DNA of 64,000 nt from an uncultured Pseudomonadales bacterium. GTDB taxonomy: Bacteria; Patescibacteriota; Microgenomatia; UBA1400; MFAQ01. Below the pieces are notes generated by a model that was not told the origin of the DNA, did not search any database, and was given only the letters and a program-made list of their open reading frames with translations. This document shows, piece after piece, positions 32,714 to 38,177 of the stretch. Where the stretch lies: contig CAYHNG010000001.1 in assembly GCA_964357975.1 (NCBI GenBank), forward strand, positions 47,007 through 111,006, given 5' to 3'. A program made the translations under genes and the position numbers. Numbering within the stretch: the first letter of the stretch is position 1; each line of letters opens with the position of its first letter.

Positions 32714-34117
32714 CTAAATTTCCAGGTCACGGAGCAGATTTATTTTTATTGAGCTTTTCTCGTTTGATTTTTGGGCGCCGTAAATCCACCCGAAAGCTTC
32801 GTCTGCAGGACACGATACCGGTTTACCGGCATATGACCGGAAGAGATAGCACCAGCCACCGTATGCTGAGTAGCCAACTTCATCTTTTGTTCCTAAAATG
32901 ATGGAATATGGTTGGTTTTGAATATCTTTGGTAACTTTGATAATTCTTTCCTTTCGGGACACCAAACCATACTTTGATTGTTCACAAGTGAAAATGGTAA
33001 CTGCAGAGGAGAGAACAAAAATAAGAATTAGGAACCAGGAAATTTTCGGGTTTAATGAAGAAAGAAGTATCCCCGAAAAAACGGAAAATAGGGTGAAGAA
33101 GCTGAGGAGGTAGTATTCGATCACGTTACCGGGATAAAGAAGATACGAGATAATTGAAATAATAAGCATCGCAAAAAGAAGCAAGAATTTTTTGTCTCTC
33201 TTGGCTCTAAAAAAAGAAAAAACTAAGATTCCTAAAGAAAAGGATGACAGAAGAAAGACGGAACCGGTGGGTACCCCCGCGCCTCCAAAGCCCATTTCTG
33301 CCTGAACTGACGTCCGAGGACGTAGATACCAGAAACGACTAAGCGAGTTCCAGGTGGTGGATAAACGGCTTGGCAATCTATCTATTATCGAGATATCGCC
33401 TTGTGCTGTGAGCATGCGAAGTGGGGTACGCAGATTGTCGAAATTATGGACCTTGTCGAAGACAAGAAGTGGAGAAATCAAAATTAGATATACGACGATG
33501 GAAGATATCCACGTACTAAAATTGATTCTCTTGAAGGATTTAAAAACGAGAAAGAAAATTACCGGCCAGAACATGAGCAGTGAAAGGTGAATATGGAGCG
33601 CCGTAGCCATAATGGCTGAAACGAGAACAAACCAACGAGTATTTTTCTGAGATTTGTATAAAGAAAATAACAACCAAACCGTAAGTAGCGGAATGGGAGA
33701 TGGATTCCAGAAACGACGATCAAAGAAATTCAAGAGAGGAGATCCTGCGTAAAAAAATGAAGAAAAAATGGCTACCGATGGTGAAAATAGTCGAGATGAA
33801 ACAAAGTATATGGAAATAACCGTAGCCAGACCGAGTAGGGGGGCGAAATAGGCAAGAATAAGAGGATCTCCTCCGGAGAAGAAGAATAAGAGAGCGTTTA
33901 AATAGGTGAACGCAGGCCCGAGATAAAAGCCGGTATTTCCGGCGCTTACTCCAATCCAGATGGGGTGAAAATCCTGAACCTGTGACCAAGCAAGAAAGGC
34001 TTGATATTCTTCATCAAAATTGAAACTAAACCACTCACCTGCTTTCCAAAAACGGAGAAAGAGAAGAAAGACAAATAATAAAACCGGAAGAATGTGAACC
34101 GGTTTTATTTTTGTCAT
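32714..34117 (-). CDS. ArnT/GT83-like GT-C membrane glycosyltransferase
   Basis: FSFNFDEEYQAFLAW...GNTGFYLGPAFTYL resembles the ArnT DE-x-RYAE motif; polytopic. Confidence 0.6.
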   Translation of the reverse strand: MTKIKPVHILPVLLFVFLLFLRFWKAGEWFSFNFDEEYQAFLAWSQVQDFHPIWIGVSAGNTGFYLGPAFTYLNALLFFFSGGDPLILAYFAPLLGLATVISIYFVSSRLFSPSVAIFSSFFYAGSPLLNFFDRRFWNPSPIPLLTVWLLFSLYKSQKNTRWFVLVSAIMATALHIHLSLLMFWPVIFFLVFKSFKRINFSTWISSIVVYLILISPLLVFDKVHNFDNLRTPLRMLTAQGDISIIDRLPSRLSTTWNSLSRFWYLRPRTSVQAEMGFGGAGVPTGSVFLLSSFSLGILVFSFFRAKRDKKFLLLFAMLIISIISYLLYPGNVIEYYLLSFFTLFSVFSGILLSSLNPKISWFLILIFVLSSAVTIFTCEQSKYGLVSRKERIIKVTKDIQNQPYSIILGTKDEVGYSAYGGWCYLFRSYAGKPVSCPADEAFGWIYGAQKSNEKSSIKINLLRDLEI

Positions 34118-34138: not shown

Positions 34139-35242
34139 CTATATTAATCTTTCCCAGGGATACTCCGAATGGCCGAAGTGGCCGTACCTGGCAGTTTTTT
34201 GATAAATGGGCTGTAGCAAAGCGAGACCGGAAATGATGCCGGCGACGGAAAGATCCAACAGCTTCCAGGCAAAATCTTCGATGATTTTTTGATCTTTTTT
34301 GTTGGTGCCATAAGTTTCTATGGCCTTTCCCACCGGATCTTTGACACCGATGGCATAGGCCAGCTGGACTTCGCAACGATCGGCCAATTTGGCGGCCACG
34401 ATATTCTTGGCAATAAATCTGGCGGCATAGGCCCCTGACCGATCGACCTTCGTAAGATCCTTGCCCGAAAAACAACCTCCGCCGATTCTGCCCATACCAC
34501 CATAGGTATCGACGACAATTTTCCGGCCGGTAACTCCCGTATCCGAAGCAGGACCGCCAATTTCCCAAGCACCTGTGCCGTTGAAGATCACATTTTTGAG
34601 GGAGATTTGGGGCAGGTGATATTTTTCGAGAAGCGGGACAATTGAAAGTTTGTAGAGATACTCTTTGATTTCCTCGCGGGCCATCTTCGGATCTTGGGGT
34701 TTGGCTAAGACAATTTTCTCGACCGAAATCGGGCGACCATTTGCGTATTTAACGGTGACTTGAGATTTTCCGTCCGGGCGGAGAAAAGGTAACTCTTTCA
34801 CAAACAACAAATCCATGGACTCTGCGAGCTCGTGGGCCAGAGTAATGGGGAGCGGCATGAGCTGTGCGGTCTCATTGGTGGCGTAACCAAACATCATACC
34901 CTGATCCCCTGCTCCCCCATCGTCAACGCCAACGGCAATATCTTTGGACTGTTCATGGATGTAAACCTCGATATCGGTTTGAGGACCAAAGCGGTATTCG
35001 TCTCGGGTATAGCCTAAGTCCCGAATAACTTTTTTGGCTAGGCTTTGGTAATCGAGTGAACGGGGACAGGTAATCTCCCCGGCCATAATCAGCTTGTTGG
35101 TAGTCACAAGCGATTCACAAGCCACACGAGAATGTGGATCGGCCTGGAGAGCGGCATCTAATACGGCATCCGAGATCTGATCACAGATCTTATCCGGGTG
35201 GCCGGCGCAAACGGACTCAGACGAAAAGAGGGAATAGTTCAT
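34139..35242 (-). CDS. metK: S-adenosylmethionine synthetase
   Basis: SESVCAGHPDKICDQISDA, GAGDQGMMFGYA and GGGCFSGKD hallmark motifs. Confidence 0.95.
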   Translation of the reverse strand: MNYSLFSSESVCAGHPDKICDQISDAVLDAALQADPHSRVACESLVTTNKLIMAGEITCPRSLDYQSLAKKVIRDLGYTRDEYRFGPQTDIEVYIHEQSKDIAVGVDDGGAGDQGMMFGYATNETAQLMPLPITLAHELAESMDLLFVKELPFLRPDGKSQVTVKYANGRPISVEKIVLAKPQDPKMAREEIKEYLYKLSIVPLLEKYHLPQISLKNVIFNGTGAWEIGGPASDTGVTGRKIVVDTYGGMGRIGGGCFSGKDLTKVDRSGAYAARFIAKNIVAAKLADRCEVQLAYAIGVKDPVGKAIETYGTNKKDQKIIEDFAWKLLDLSVAGIISGLALLQPIYQKTARYGHFGHSEYPWERLI

Positions 35243-35345
35243 TTTATTTTTCCTCTAATTGATAACAGAGGCTTGTCATTTTGGCACCGCGACCTGAATT
35301 GGCTCGGTTGTCGTCCGCCTATGGCGGAACTCTTGACAGCTAGGA
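35243..35345 (-). ncRNA. Candidate SAM riboswitch (SAM-I/SAM-IV clan) in the metK 5' leader
   Basis: The minus-strand RNA reads GCUGUCAAGAGUUCCGCCAUAGGCGGACGACAACCGAGCCAAUUCAGGUCGCGGUGCCAAAAUGACAAGCCUCUGUUAUCAAUUAGAGGAAAAAUAAAAAUG. It contains UCAAGAG (P1/J1-2), CAACC...GGUGCC (the P3 strands of SAM-I/IV) and AUGACAAGC, which can close P1 against GCUGUCA. A downstream CCUCU...AGAGG hairpin can sequester the probable Shine-Dalgarno sequence. Confidence 0.45.
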
Positions 35346-35364
35346 TAATATTAACACGAAATGA

Positions 35365-36495
35365 TTAGGCTACGAAGTAGCCGCGTGTGAAGAAAATGAT
35401 GGAGAGAATGGATAAAACGATGCAAGTGGCATAGAGACTGTACTTAATGAAGGGATGTTGTTTCTCGATCCAAAACGCCATGACCATGAACACCGGGAAA
35501 AGCACTAATGTAAATCGGGGCATGCTCATAAAGGTACCTGAAAATGTGGGCAGCAAGAAAGACAGCAAAACAAATAGCCAGTAAGAGAAACGAATTCTTC
35601 TAAAGAAAATAATTAAAGCGGTGACAATCAACACGGCCGAAAACAACTCCAAGACGACGGTAAAGTAGAGAGGGTCCCAGTCGGTAAAAATTAACATTTT
35701 GAAATAGCGGAAGAAGACCTGGTGGAGAAGAATTAGTTTGTCTACTGTCCGGCCACCAAAGACAGATTGAATGTGGAAAAAGAATAATGGATCTCCGGTT
35801 TTGAGATATTGAAAACGCATAAAAGAAAAAAGCCCTAGTGGAGGAAGAAGTAACCACAGAGCAGAAAAATTAACAGACTTTTTTATATCTTTGCCGTACA
35901 TGAGCCAGAACTCGTAAATAATGGAAGGCCAGAGAAAGATACCGGTGATCCGGGTGGCCGAAGCGATCGCGGCCACAACACAGGCCAGAAAAAAGTGTTG
36001 GCGGCGAATAAGGTAAAAAGTGAGAACCGTCAGTAGAAGAAACAAAGACTCGGTGTAGACCGAGCCAAAAAAGAAGGCCGTGGGAAATAAGAGTATCAAC
36101 ATAATAGTAAGGCGAGAGACCTTCTTAGTGAAGTCCAGCGCGGTTAGACGATAGAGGAAATAAAGAGCCAGGATGAGATAGACATGAGAGAGAAAGAGCC
36201 CCGAAGCCAGGTAATTGCCGAATAGATTGAAAGTTCTTACTGTCCAAGGATAAACCGGGAAGAAAGCATAGTCCATGTCGGTCTTGTGCTGATAGCCATA
36301 ACCAAACTGAGCAAGGTCAAGATAATGAAGGCCATCAAAGTTGGACCACATGGAAAAAATGTTTCCGACAGAGGGCTTTTCGGTGAGACTCGTGAAACGG
36401 GTACGGGGAGGCAGAAGAAACATGGCCGGGAGAGCGATGAGAATAATCAGAACTCGCCAACCTAAAACGAGTTTGAAGATTTCTTTGATGGACAT
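35365..36495 (-). CDS. Polytopic membrane protein, putative GT-C mannosyltransferase-like (PIG-V/DUF2029-like)
   Basis: 376 aa, about 10 TM helices, conserved HYLDLAQFGYGY loop; assignment tentative. Confidence 0.4.
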   Translation of the reverse strand: MSIKEIFKLVLGWRVLIILIALPAMFLLPPRTRFTSLTEKPSVGNIFSMWSNFDGLHYLDLAQFGYGYQHKTDMDYAFFPVYPWTVRTFNLFGNYLASGLFLSHVYLILALYFLYRLTALDFTKKVSRLTIMLILLFPTAFFFGSVYTESLFLLLTVLTFYLIRRQHFFLACVVAAIASATRITGIFLWPSIIYEFWLMYGKDIKKSVNFSALWLLLPPLGLFSFMRFQYLKTGDPLFFFHIQSVFGGRTVDKLILLHQVFFRYFKMLIFTDWDPLYFTVVLELFSAVLIVTALIIFFRRIRFSYWLFVLLSFLLPTFSGTFMSMPRFTLVLFPVFMVMAFWIEKQHPFIKYSLYATCIVLSILSIIFFTRGYFVA

Positions 36496-38177
36496 TACGG
36501 TTTTGTCACTCCATTTCTAAGTCGAGAAATTACACGCTCTTCCCCCATTACTTGCATCATTTCGTATAGATCTGGTGTCATGGTCTTTCCAGATAGCGCA
36601 ATGCGAAGGACCATCGCTACGTCGCCAAGATGACCTCTGTATCCTTGTGTATTACTCTTGTATTCTTTCATAGATGACGCATACCCAAGTGATAAGCACA
36701 CCACTTTTAGTTTCTCAAACCAGATCTCTTTTGTGTCTGAATAGTGATAGCTGGTCAGAAATTTCTTGATAATTTCTTTGACTTTCAATGGGTCGGTAAT
36801 GTTTTCGGTGGTAATTGGAAAAACTGCTTGATCAAAAATTTCATCGTAGAAGAATCCGAACAAGTCAGGTATCTGAGACCATTGTGAGATATCTTTTCTA
36901 TTTTTATCTCCTTCGCGCTCAATGTTGAGAATGCTAATTGAATACTCTTTATCCATTGTAAATATGCGATGAAATTCAGAGTTGAACTTTTGAGACCAAT
37001 CACATACCAATGAATATATCTCATCGACCTTCATGGTAGAAATTTCTTGCTTGCAGATATCCAAGAACTTAACCATATCAAACAGGGCCCCAGATGATCC
37101 CATGTGGACAAGGGTGAGGGGGAAATCCAAAAGCGAGGTGTGTGGATTCTCCTTCCTCCATTTTTCAAATCCGGAATCGGCGATGTTCAACACATAAGCT
37201 CTGACTGCTTTTGCGGGAATACCAAGTTTAAGATAATAAGAAGTATCAGCCTCCGGATCTTTTCTCTTGCTAAGCTTTCTTTTGGTGGTCTCTCCGTCCA
37301 TTTTCATGACTGGGGATAAATGTCCGAATTTCGGTCGATCCCAACCAAAAGCATCAATGATCTGCAGATGAAGTGGTAACGAAGGTAGCCATTCATCGCC
37401 ACGAATTACTTGGTTAACCCCCTGCAGATGATCGTCAACCATAGCGGCCAAATGATAGACAGGTAATCCTAGTCCTGTTGAAGCAGACTTCATTAAGACA
37501 TAGTCGGTATCATTTCCCGGAAGTGTAACTCGACCCTTTATAGAGTCGGTAAAAGTGGAGACAGTGAAATTCAGTGGTGAGCGGAAGCGGATGGCAAAGG
37601 TTTCTCCAGCGGCTAACTTGTCTTTTATGTTGTCGAGAGAAAGGTTTCGGCATGCGGCGTACTTACCGTAATACCCCGTTCTTTCTTTGTTGGAAACTTG
37701 AGTCTGTCGAGCTAATTCAAGTTTCTCGGCATTACAGAAACAAGGATAGGCCATACCCCTTTTTAGTAGGGTTTTGATGGCCGATAAGTAGACTTCCTGT
37801 CGATGACTTTGGATGTATGGTCCATATTGACCGACCTCCTCGTCTCCTAATATGGGTCCTTCGGAATATTGGACACCAAATTCCCTTAAAGCAGTGATTA
37901 TTGTTTTTATTCCGCCAACAACTTCCCTATTTTTATCTGTATCTTCGATCCTTAAAAAAAAGACACCGCTACTCAAGTGAGCAATTTGCTCATTCACCAT
38001 CGAGGTGAAGATCAGTCCAAAGTGAGCAAAACCGGTAGGGCTGGGAGCGACACGAACCACCAGAGCACCTTCTGGTAGCTTCCTTTTTGGATAACGGAGC
38101 TCGATCTCTGAGAGTTCGAGGGTGGATTCCGGAACAAGCAGCTTCGCTAATTCAGTGTTGGTTAATTTGTCTACCAT
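36495..38177 (-). CDS. gltX: Glutamate--tRNA ligase
   Basis: VVRVAPSPTGFAHFG (HIGH-type) and KLSKRK (KMSKS) motifs; 560 aa. Confidence 0.9.
   Translation of the reverse strand: MVDKLTNTELAKLLVPESTLELSEIELRYPKRKLPEGALVVRVAPSPTGFAHFGLIFTSMVNEQIAHLSSGVFFLRIEDTDKNREVVGGIKTIITALREFGVQYSEGPILGDEEVGQYGPYIQSHRQEVYLSAIKTLLKRGMAYPCFCNAEKLELARQTQVSNKERTGYYGKYAACRNLSLDNIKDKLAAGETFAIRFRSPLNFTVSTFTDSIKGRVTLPGNDTDYVLMKSASTGLGLPVYHLAAMVDDHLQGVNQVIRGDEWLPSLPLHLQIIDAFGWDRPKFGHLSPVMKMDGETTKRKLSKRKDPEADTSYYLKLGIPAKAVRAYVLNIADSGFEKWRKENPHTSLLDFPLTLVHMGSSGALFDMVKFLDICKQEISTMKVDEIYSLVCDWSQKFNSEFHRIFTMDKEYSISILNIEREGDKNRKDISQWSQIPDLFGFFYDEIFDQAVFPITTENITDPLKVKEIIKKFLTSYHYSDTKEIWFEKLKVVCLSLGYASSMKEYKSNTQGYRGHLGDVAMVLRIALSGKTMTPDLYEMMQVMGEERVISRLRNGVTKP

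Follow-up and report, generated by a model that had tools for sequence, protein, structure and literature searches.

The window analysed here, a stretch of 64,000 nucleotides (64 kb) of contig CAYHNG010000001.1 from a Microgenomates-group bacterium, carries on its minus strand a gene for S-adenosylmethionine (SAM) synthetase, metK, and immediately 5' of it a leader that resembles a SAM riboswitch. The gene is a bona fide metK, encoding all three S-AdoMet synthetase Pfam domains, and its product shares 91% identity with the MetK of a metagenome-assembled genome (MAG) of the Microgenomates group, followed by many sequences of about 70% identity that are named Candidatus Shapirobacteria. The original prediction had placed a SAM-I/IV-clan riboswitch at 35243-35345. 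These coordinates were correct, with a functional element that runs on the minus strand from about 35340 (helix P1 and the predicted transcription start) to about 35238, and all the strings named for the leader were found on that strand where they had been put (Table 1). Read 5' to 3', the leader is GCUGUC-AAGAGU-UCCGCC-AUA-GGCGGA-CGACA-ACCGAGCC-AAUUCA-GGUCGCGGU-GCCAAAAU, continued by GACAAG-CCUCUG-UUAUCAAU-UAGAGG-AAAAAUAAA-AUG.

The unconstrained minimum free energy (MFE) fold of the leader yielded P1, P2 and P3 plus a CCUCUG/UAGAGG hairpin, which contains the Shine-Dalgarno (SD) sequence AGAGG in its UAGAGG arm and has in isolation a free energy (dG) of -6.4 kcal/mol. This SD hairpin corresponds to P4 of Rfam and to P5 in the papers on RNA-Puzzles and on SAM-IV cryo-electron microscopy (cryo-EM). 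P1 is formed by the pairs C35335-G35277, U35336-A35276, G35337-C35275, U35338-A35274 and C35339-G35272 with A35273 bulged, the partner of GCUGUCA being UGACA-A-GC with this single bulged A, and G35340 could pair with C35271 and extend the helix. P2 has neither an internal loop nor a kink-turn (K-turn), and there is no room in it for a pseudoknot at its tip (PK-1). P3 consists of ACCG/CGGU and GCC/GG-C, with an A/G internal loop plus a bulged U between them, and its loop L3 (35300..35295) is the candidate partner of the leader tail in a second pseudoknot (PK-2). A junction P4 is absent, as GGUGC is linked to the 3' strand of P1 by CAAAAU alone; with its plain P2 hairpin the leader is, as had been noted, shorter than SAM-I and without a K-turn P2 or a P4. 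The binding core of the SAM clan (P1, J1/2 A(A/C)GAG and the CAACC...GGUGC P3 in the junction) is present in the window and aligned to the model. The layout of the element agrees with the consensus of the SAM-I/IV family RF01725, namely a P1 of 5 base pairs (bp), AAGAG, a plain P2, CAACC-P3-GGUG, an A-rich J3/1 of six nucleotides (nt), the P1 3' strand and a hairpin one nt on. By definition the SAM-I/IV class has a P2 without internal loop and without a P2-tip pseudoknot (PMC2864571 Additional file 1; PMC6890682).

Table 1. Positions, in the window, of the leader elements, of the strings named for the leader and of the surrounding genes.
Feature	Position	Strand	Basis or remark
P1 5' strand GCUGUC	35335..35340	-	sequence and MFE fold
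J1/2 AAGAGU, conserved SAM-clan junction	35329..35334	-	aligns with AAGAG / AuGAG in the RF01725 and RF00634 consensus
P2 UCCGCC-AUA-GGCGGA, plain 6-bp hairpin, 3-nt loop	35314..35328	-	perfect pairing in sequence and fold
J2/3 and P3, CGACA-ACCGAGCC-AAUUCA-GGUCGCGGU	35286..35313	-	MFE fold; CAACC...GGUG aligned to Rfam consensus
GC of the GGUGC core and J3/1 CAAAAU (GCCAAAAU)	35278..35285	-	fits RF01725 consensus J3/1 'uaaAaa'
P1 3' strand GACAAG	35272..35277	-	sequence, MFE fold and alignment
SD-sequestering hairpin	35252..35271	-	anti-SD arm CCUCUG 35271..35266 and UAGAGG 35257..35252, 8-nt loop
Candidate PK-2 3' strand UGAA (start-codon UG and AA)	35238..35241	-	UUCA in L3, 35298..35295
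String GCUGUCA	35340..35334	-	
String UCAAGAG	35336..35330	-	
String CAACC	35310..35306	-	
String GGUGCC	35288..35283	-	
String AUGACAAGC	35279..35271	-	
String CCUCU	35271..35267	-	
String AGAGG	35256..35252	-	
AUG of metK	35242..35240	-	
Predicted extended -10 promoter TGtTAATAT	35356..35348	-	TGnTAnnAT invariant in the five closest leaders
metK, S-adenosylmethionine synthetase, 367 amino acids	34139..35242	-	Pfam PF00438, PF02772, PF02773, E 1e-32 to 4e-60
Upstream gene, weak PMT_2 glycosyltransferase match	35365..36495	-	stops about 10 nt before the predicted extended -10 box
PMT_2-family glycosyltransferase-like gene	32714..34117	-	
PMT_2-family glycosyltransferase-like gene	36495..38177	-	

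In a local permissive cmscan of 301 nt the leader matched the full model (positions 1-116) of the SAM-IV family RF00634 at 33.8 bits with E=1.7e-4, a value of about 0.04 when rescaled to the whole window, and this clan, CL00012, gave the sole Rfam signal at the leader. The gathering scores are 38 bits for RF00634, 41.1 bits for RF01725 and 44.4 bits for the SAM-I family RF00162. Six orthologous leaders were over the gathering score of RF01725 (L082 41.3, L083 44.9, L084 45.2, L166 52.6, L189 46.5 and L186 42.6; L numbers denote related leaders and their contigs), no relative tested reached that of RF00634, and RF00162 gave no match in the window and at best 26.1 bits among the relatives. The clan signal, the orthologues that pass RF01725 and the RF01725 architecture bear out the proposal of a riboswitch of this clan on metK, presumably binding SAM and standing nearer to SAM-IV or the SAM-I/IV variants. 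Where the element had been suggested to be a divergent, minimal member, the clan membership stood, whereas 'minimal' applies only in a relative sense, members without P4 being already known in the family. We regard the leader as a real but by all appearances ordinary SAM-I/IV-type riboswitch that lies just under the standard cut-offs.

For comparison, we collected contigs with MetK homologues of 66-91% identity and scanned metagenomes with a pattern from the conserved core, matches being kept if a metK start followed downstream; this resulted in 57 distinct leaders. About 45 other pattern matches were due to chance and lay in GC-rich coding DNA. A search of the genome collection with MetK was dominated by universal MetK peptide motifs, and the relatives there were only L001 and L002. 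The 57 leaders showed two architectures: in 27 of them, including the window, GGUGC is followed after about 6 nt by the P1 3' strand (three-way junction), and the other 30 have a covarying hairpin at this site (four-way junction). A covariance model was made from the 27 three-way-junction leaders, and 25 of these were realigned, leaving out the window and its near-twin L081. Across the 25 relatives, 90% of the cells of P1-P3 were in standard pairs, compared to 32-41% with the partners slid by 1-3 columns, and the covariation score of P1-P3 was 0.293 versus 0.130 after shuffling, with 0/500 shuffles as high. Changes on both sides were seen in 6/6 pairs of P2 and in the top two pairs of P3, P1 cells were paired in 97.6%, and the P2 sequence was wholly different in L082, L084 and L087. 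The comparison of metK leaders that had been proposed as a check thus found P1, P2 and P3 conserved and covarying in these relatives, with the inner P1 and lower P3 pairs fixed by the pattern. A model built from the 25 leaders, R2, from which the window and L081 were excluded, had one match only in the whole window, at 35231..35346 on the minus strand (125.6 bits, E=1.9e-26). With 37-68 bits it also recovered every four-way-junction relative, and with 41.5 bits L091, a leader that the pattern had not selected.

In 57/57 leaders a helix starts on the first nucleotide after the last pair of P1, and its purine-rich 3' arm, the SD arm, ends 4-12 nt before the AUG, mostly 6-7. As the A-rich SD arm stayed out of register in MAFFT and covariance-model realignments, this helix was analysed by an anchored script. 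There were 16 distinct arm pairs, with compensatory changes, including CCUCUG/UAGAGG, CCUUUA/UAAAGG, CCUCUU/AGGAGG, UCUCU/GGAGA, UCCGAUU/AAUCGGG, CCC/GGG and CCA/UGG. The mean anchored stem was 5.5 bp, compared to 1.6 bp in shuffled sequences; it was 1.3-2.3 bp when the anchor was moved upstream, and about one pair was lost per nucleotide when it was moved downstream. The 5' arms fitted their own SD better, with a mean of 3.9 Watson-Crick pairs, than the SDs of other classes, with 2.4, and 0/5000 permutations were as good. The post-P1 hairpin of L166 aligns to the post-P1 hairpin of the RF01725 model. The occlusion of the SD by CCUCU/AGAGG, which the original prediction had put forward, is thus borne out by a helix that is kept and covaries in all the leaders. 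A terminator scan gave no terminator-like site in or around the window metK leader, and as the SD helix is there instead, control of metK by this leader is most likely translational, as had also been suggested.

Some pairing options around the SD stood apart from this pattern. In L161 (5562-5735), unlike the other leaders, the anti-SD has two possible partners: a local hairpin CUCCGAUG-AAA-CAUCGGGG directly after P1, and the real SD, which lies about 45 nt further downstream and would form with it a long-range helix of 11 bp, CUCCGAUGAAA/UUUUAUUGGAG. This leader could be a genuine two-state expression platform. In the window, CCCUCUU in codons 4-7 of metK (UCC CUC UUU UCG; 35219-35231, minus strand) is complementary both to the SD AGAGG and to J1/2 AAGAG, and RNAfold makes use of it in the MFE structures for L082, L084 and the window. 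This stretch may serve as a further anti-SD downstream of the first, or merely follow from the conserved N-terminus MNYSLFSSESV. One may further speculate that the AGAG of J1/2 mimics the SD towards the anti-SD, which would fit most arms, not those of L114 or L188, and which is an expected by-product of its SD-like sequence.

The predicted transcription start of the window leader, at about 35341-35340, coincides with the 5' end of P1, and nearly all 57 leaders have a -10-like TAnnnT that ends 7-9 nt 5' of P1. As this box is placed just 5' of P1, the window transcript probably begins at P1. TTGACA at -35 is present in many four-way-junction relatives, and a generic sigma-70 scan gave no promoter at the window leader, which we attribute to the absence of a good -35. 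An Rfam scan of the whole window returned zero families at gathering score, and no tRNA, rRNA or RNase P matches were reported from it.

Taken together, we consider it quite probable that the metK leader of this Microgenomates-group bacterium senses SAM as a riboswitch with the SAM-I/IV architecture, and that it acts as a translational OFF switch by way of its SD hairpin. Transcription would start at the extended -10 promoter a few nt before P1. When abundant, SAM, the presumed ligand, would bind to the pocket of P1, J1/2 (AAGAG) and P3 (CAACC/GGUGC), upon which P1 would close, and the closed P1 would stack directly on the adjoining 6-bp SD hairpin and hold it shut, with stacking or tertiary stabilisation as the putative coupling step. 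Pairing of L3 over the start codon would add to the block in some relatives, and weakly so in the window. The ribosome (30S) would then be excluded and less SAM synthetase would be made, giving a feedback on SAM synthesis. The GUC/GAC P1 of the window, which is the same as in the SAM-IV consensus, appears compatible with SAM binding.

Several results weigh against such a switch. The window copy is under the gathering score of every Rfam SAM family, so that the proposed check with Rfam covariance models succeeded only through the six relatives that pass RF01725; its own RF01725 score is below 33.8 bits, the match being suppressed by clan competition with SAM-IV. The core, the inner P1 pairs and the lower P3 pairs are invariant and give no covariation evidence, which for the core and the inner P1 pairs is partly due to the search pattern, as this had fixed them. 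PK-2 is not above chance in the window (p ~0.24) and is lacking in most close relatives, and in the SAM-I/IV member that has been studied PK-2 is reportedly part of the regulatory switch. Thermodynamic folding makes the SD hairpin with P1 enforced as well as with P1 blocked (RNAfold pair probability of SD:anti-SD about 0.7 unconstrained and with P1 blocked, 0.28 with P1 enforced), and no conserved competing ON-state helix was found by constrained RNAfold, only non-conserved pairings of J1/2 AAGAG or the SD with CUCUU/CCCUCU of metK codons 4-6. Secondary structure alone therefore does not explain an effect of SAM on SD access, and the coupling must rest on stacking or tertiary contacts. The same folding results, and the weak or absent PK-2 in the window clade, would suit a real aptamer whose SD hairpin is a constitutive, SAM-independent damper of translation, with SAM acting by another possible route (L3 alone covering the start codon, decay of the mRNA, or termination by Rho) or with a regulation that is weak or lost. 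We hold such a damper to be unlikely, as the helix adjoins P1 in every leader, in both junction architectures and with MetK proteins as little as about 66% identical, and an adjacency this strict is expected if P1 and the hairpin are coupled by stacking; moreover, the RF01725 consensus has the same hairpin one nt after P1. The zero-nt spacing in all 57 leaders is our main argument for the coupling, and an indirect one.

The class and the ligand of the putative SAM-I/IV switch could also be read otherwise. SAM-IV is the best Rfam family for the window, and the GUCAnGAGU of the leader matches its consensus; we ascribe the top score to the resemblance of the P1/J1/2 string GUCAnGAG to SAM-IV. However, the score is below the 38 bits required, the window, when aligned to the model, lacks 4/10 pairs of the 3' hairpin, and the orthologues at gathering score are all RF01725 and none RF00634. 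In addition, SAM-IV needs a split P2a/P2b and a PK-1 with a strand 3' of P3 (PMC6890682), and the P2 of the window precludes PK-1, which makes membership in SAM-IV very improbable. Just as little weight is given to a shift of the ligand from SAM to a related compound such as S-adenosylhomocysteine. In SAM-I, tandem A-U/U-A pairs of P1 have been linked to recognition of the sulfonium. The pair beside U-A is G-C in 57/57 leaders and A-U in the SAM-I/IV consensus and in 4L81, which speaks for such a shift, but the SAM-IV consensus has the same gGUC/GAcc P1 and SAM-IV is a SAM riboswitch (PMC6890682), the other core positions all fit the clan consensus, and metK is a classic SAM-repressed target. 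That the leader would hold only fortuitous short motifs in an AT-rich intergenic spacer, with no structured RNA, agrees with the lack of any Rfam family at gathering score in the window. This reading is refuted by the covariation, the leave-out model and the SD-arm permutations: R2 found the exact site with E ~2e-26, P2, P3 and the SD helix vary in a compensatory manner among the 57 leaders, and orthologues pass Rfam, which leaves it next to no probability.

The relatives varied in their peripheral elements. The SAM-I/IV sequence of 4L81, GGUGC-UCA-CACCG-GAGA-CGGUG-GAUCC, forms a P4 of the same topology as the hairpin of the 30 four-way-junction leaders (PMC5393176), and the original SAM-I/IV seed alignment contains a variable junction hairpin and some members with a 1-nt L3. 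Both architectures are therefore inside the known family, and PK-2 is not universal in it. A transition from SAM-I to SAM-I/IV within one lineage was considered as a novelty and rejected, since 4L81 and the seed alignment already hold a junction P4. In a neighbour-joining tree of MetK the P4-less leaders form one main clade, which includes the window, and a separate pair, L110 and L191, which implies two or more losses or gains of P4.

Six perfect PK-2 pairs, AGUUCA:UGAACU, lie over the start codon in L084 and L166 (p ~0.01 each), those of L166 aligning to the pseudoknot positions of the Rfam model and being fully compensated, and L144 has 5 pairs. PK-2 is absent from L082, L083, L124, L162, L186 and L202, and the L3 of most close relatives is A-rich or has 4 nt without a complement. 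Between L3 and the tail of the window there are 4 contiguous pairs (UUCA:UGAA), or 5/6 for AAUUCA/UGAACU with an A.C mismatch, and its PK-2 is best described as vestigial. When loop pairings were compared with shuffles in the 57 leaders, none was enriched (L3/tail, L3/hairpin loop, L2/tail, L2/hairpin loop, L2/J3/1 or J3/4). In four leaders (L101, L138, L174 and L179) P2 is not the plain hairpin of the others but is long and interrupted by an internal loop, as in UCUCC-UUU-CCAC...GUGG-AGUA-GGGG, and these four may keep a turn-forming P2 as in SAM-I or SAM-IV; L174 also has AGUUCA in P3, the complement of its own start region UGAACU. In L098 and L183, L3 holds a sense copy of the start region (UAUGAAUC and UCUGAACU, respectively) and not its complement, which may be chance.

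More tentatively, and with doubt prevailing, the window clade might represent a pseudoknot-free, P4-less minimal SAM-clan aptamer of which the SD-containing hairpin stacked on P1 is the only peripheral element. PK-1 is impossible in this clade, where P2 loops have 3-5 nt, and PK-2 is impossible or unsupported in most members, with an L3 that is short and A-rich or 4 nt long. If these RNAs bind SAM and regulate, the long-range pseudoknots of SAM-I, SAM-IV and SAM-I/IV would not be strictly required, and the expression platform would double as a stabilising peripheral domain.

Among the 13 four-way-junction leaders tested, ten had no Rfam match at E<1 (L094, L097, L101, L114, L138, L148, L174, L179, L180 and L188; e.g. 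L094:4049-4182 and L180:2025-2160), and in these the SAM-I/IV core is combined with a junction P4 and with the SD hairpin; the remaining 3 scored only 26-35 bits. Current Rfam models thus seem to miss most SAM riboswitches of Microgenomates/Shapirobacteria. Three pattern matches (L104:12383-12453, L146:699-766 and L147) are SAM-clan-like, with covarying P2 and P3, yet have no Microgenomates-type metK downstream. They lie on GC-rich contigs from soil and termite gut, L104 and L146 reached 27 bits with R2 over the core only, and all three probably represent SAM riboswitches from other phyla. L001 and L002, which encode the MetK relatives nearest to the window in the genome collection (63% and 57% identity), are MAG contigs labelled 'uncultured Gammaproteobacteria', a label that looks doubtful given their MetK, which is like that of the Candidate Phyla Radiation (CPR). 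L001 has 5' of metK, at 126-297, a 32.9-bit match to RF01725 with a very large insertion. As to the neighbourhood, membrane glycosyltransferase-like genes of the PMT_2 family (dolichyl-phosphate-mannose-type) stand on both sides of the window metK (Table 1), with a gene for a class I Glu/Gln-tRNA synthetase farther upstream, and glycosyltransferase genes border metK also in L082, L083 and L089.

The riboswitch class itself is already known; what is particular here is a copy below threshold in a CPR bacterium, with the SD within the post-P1 hairpin. Two further particular points are the G-C for A-U at one pair of P1, which SAM-IV also has, and a clade whose sequences show no evident P4 or PK-2. 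No paper on natural riboswitches in Patescibacteria was found in a literature coverage that was incomplete, and the full-hit lists of Rfam may include such MAGs. For annotation this means that a threshold-based Rfam scan reports nothing at this putative SAM riboswitch. Patescibacteria have tiny genomes and a poorly known gene regulation, and the leader would point to a feedback on SAM synthesis by a cis-acting RNA in Microgenomates. The 57 leaders make a natural comparison series, with a constant core and expression platform, P4 present or absent, and PK-2 present, vestigial or absent, which could show which peripheral elements the pocket of the SAM clan really needs. A compact, native and ligand-responsive leader of about 100 nt could moreover serve for controlled expression in Patescibacteria.

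SAM-dependent occlusion of the ribosome binding site of SAM- or methionine-related genes, without a terminator, is known from SAM-II, SAM-III/SMK box, SAM-V and SAM-VI. These have unrelated folds and pockets, and none of these Rfam families matched the window leader. With SAM-I (S-box, RF00162) the leader shares the strings of the ligand-binding core and the arrangement of P1, P2 and P3, and metK is a typical SAM-I target; the leader differs in lacking PK-1, an intrinsic terminator, a K-turn in P2 and the P4 of a four-way junction. SAM-IV (RF00634), of which a cryo-EM structure is available, is similar in its GUC/GAC P1, A-GAG junction, post-P1 hairpin and lack of a junction P4, whereas its P2, split by an internal loop into P2a/P2b, its PK-1 and its well-formed PK-2 set it apart from the window, which has neither of the first two and a PK-2 of at most 4 bp (PMC6890682). 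The differences from SAM-I/IV (RF01725; Weinberg et al. 2010, PMC2864571; crystal structure 4L81, Trausch et al. 2014) are these: in the window the SD is inside the 3' arm of the post-P1 hairpin, while in the Rfam consensus it is downstream of that hairpin; the P1 pair beside U-A is G-C, as in SAM-IV, and not A-U; PK-2 between L3 and the tail is vestigial, and the score is <33.8 against 41.1; and the host belongs to the Patescibacteria/Microgenomates, the description of the family naming 'several phyla, marine'. In common with SAM-I/IV are P1, the AAGAG of J1/2 and the CAACC-P3-GGUGC core, an undivided P2 whose tip forms no pseudoknot, a J3/1 that is short and A-rich, a hairpin that follows the P1 3' strand directly, and a place in the leader of a gene of SAM metabolism.

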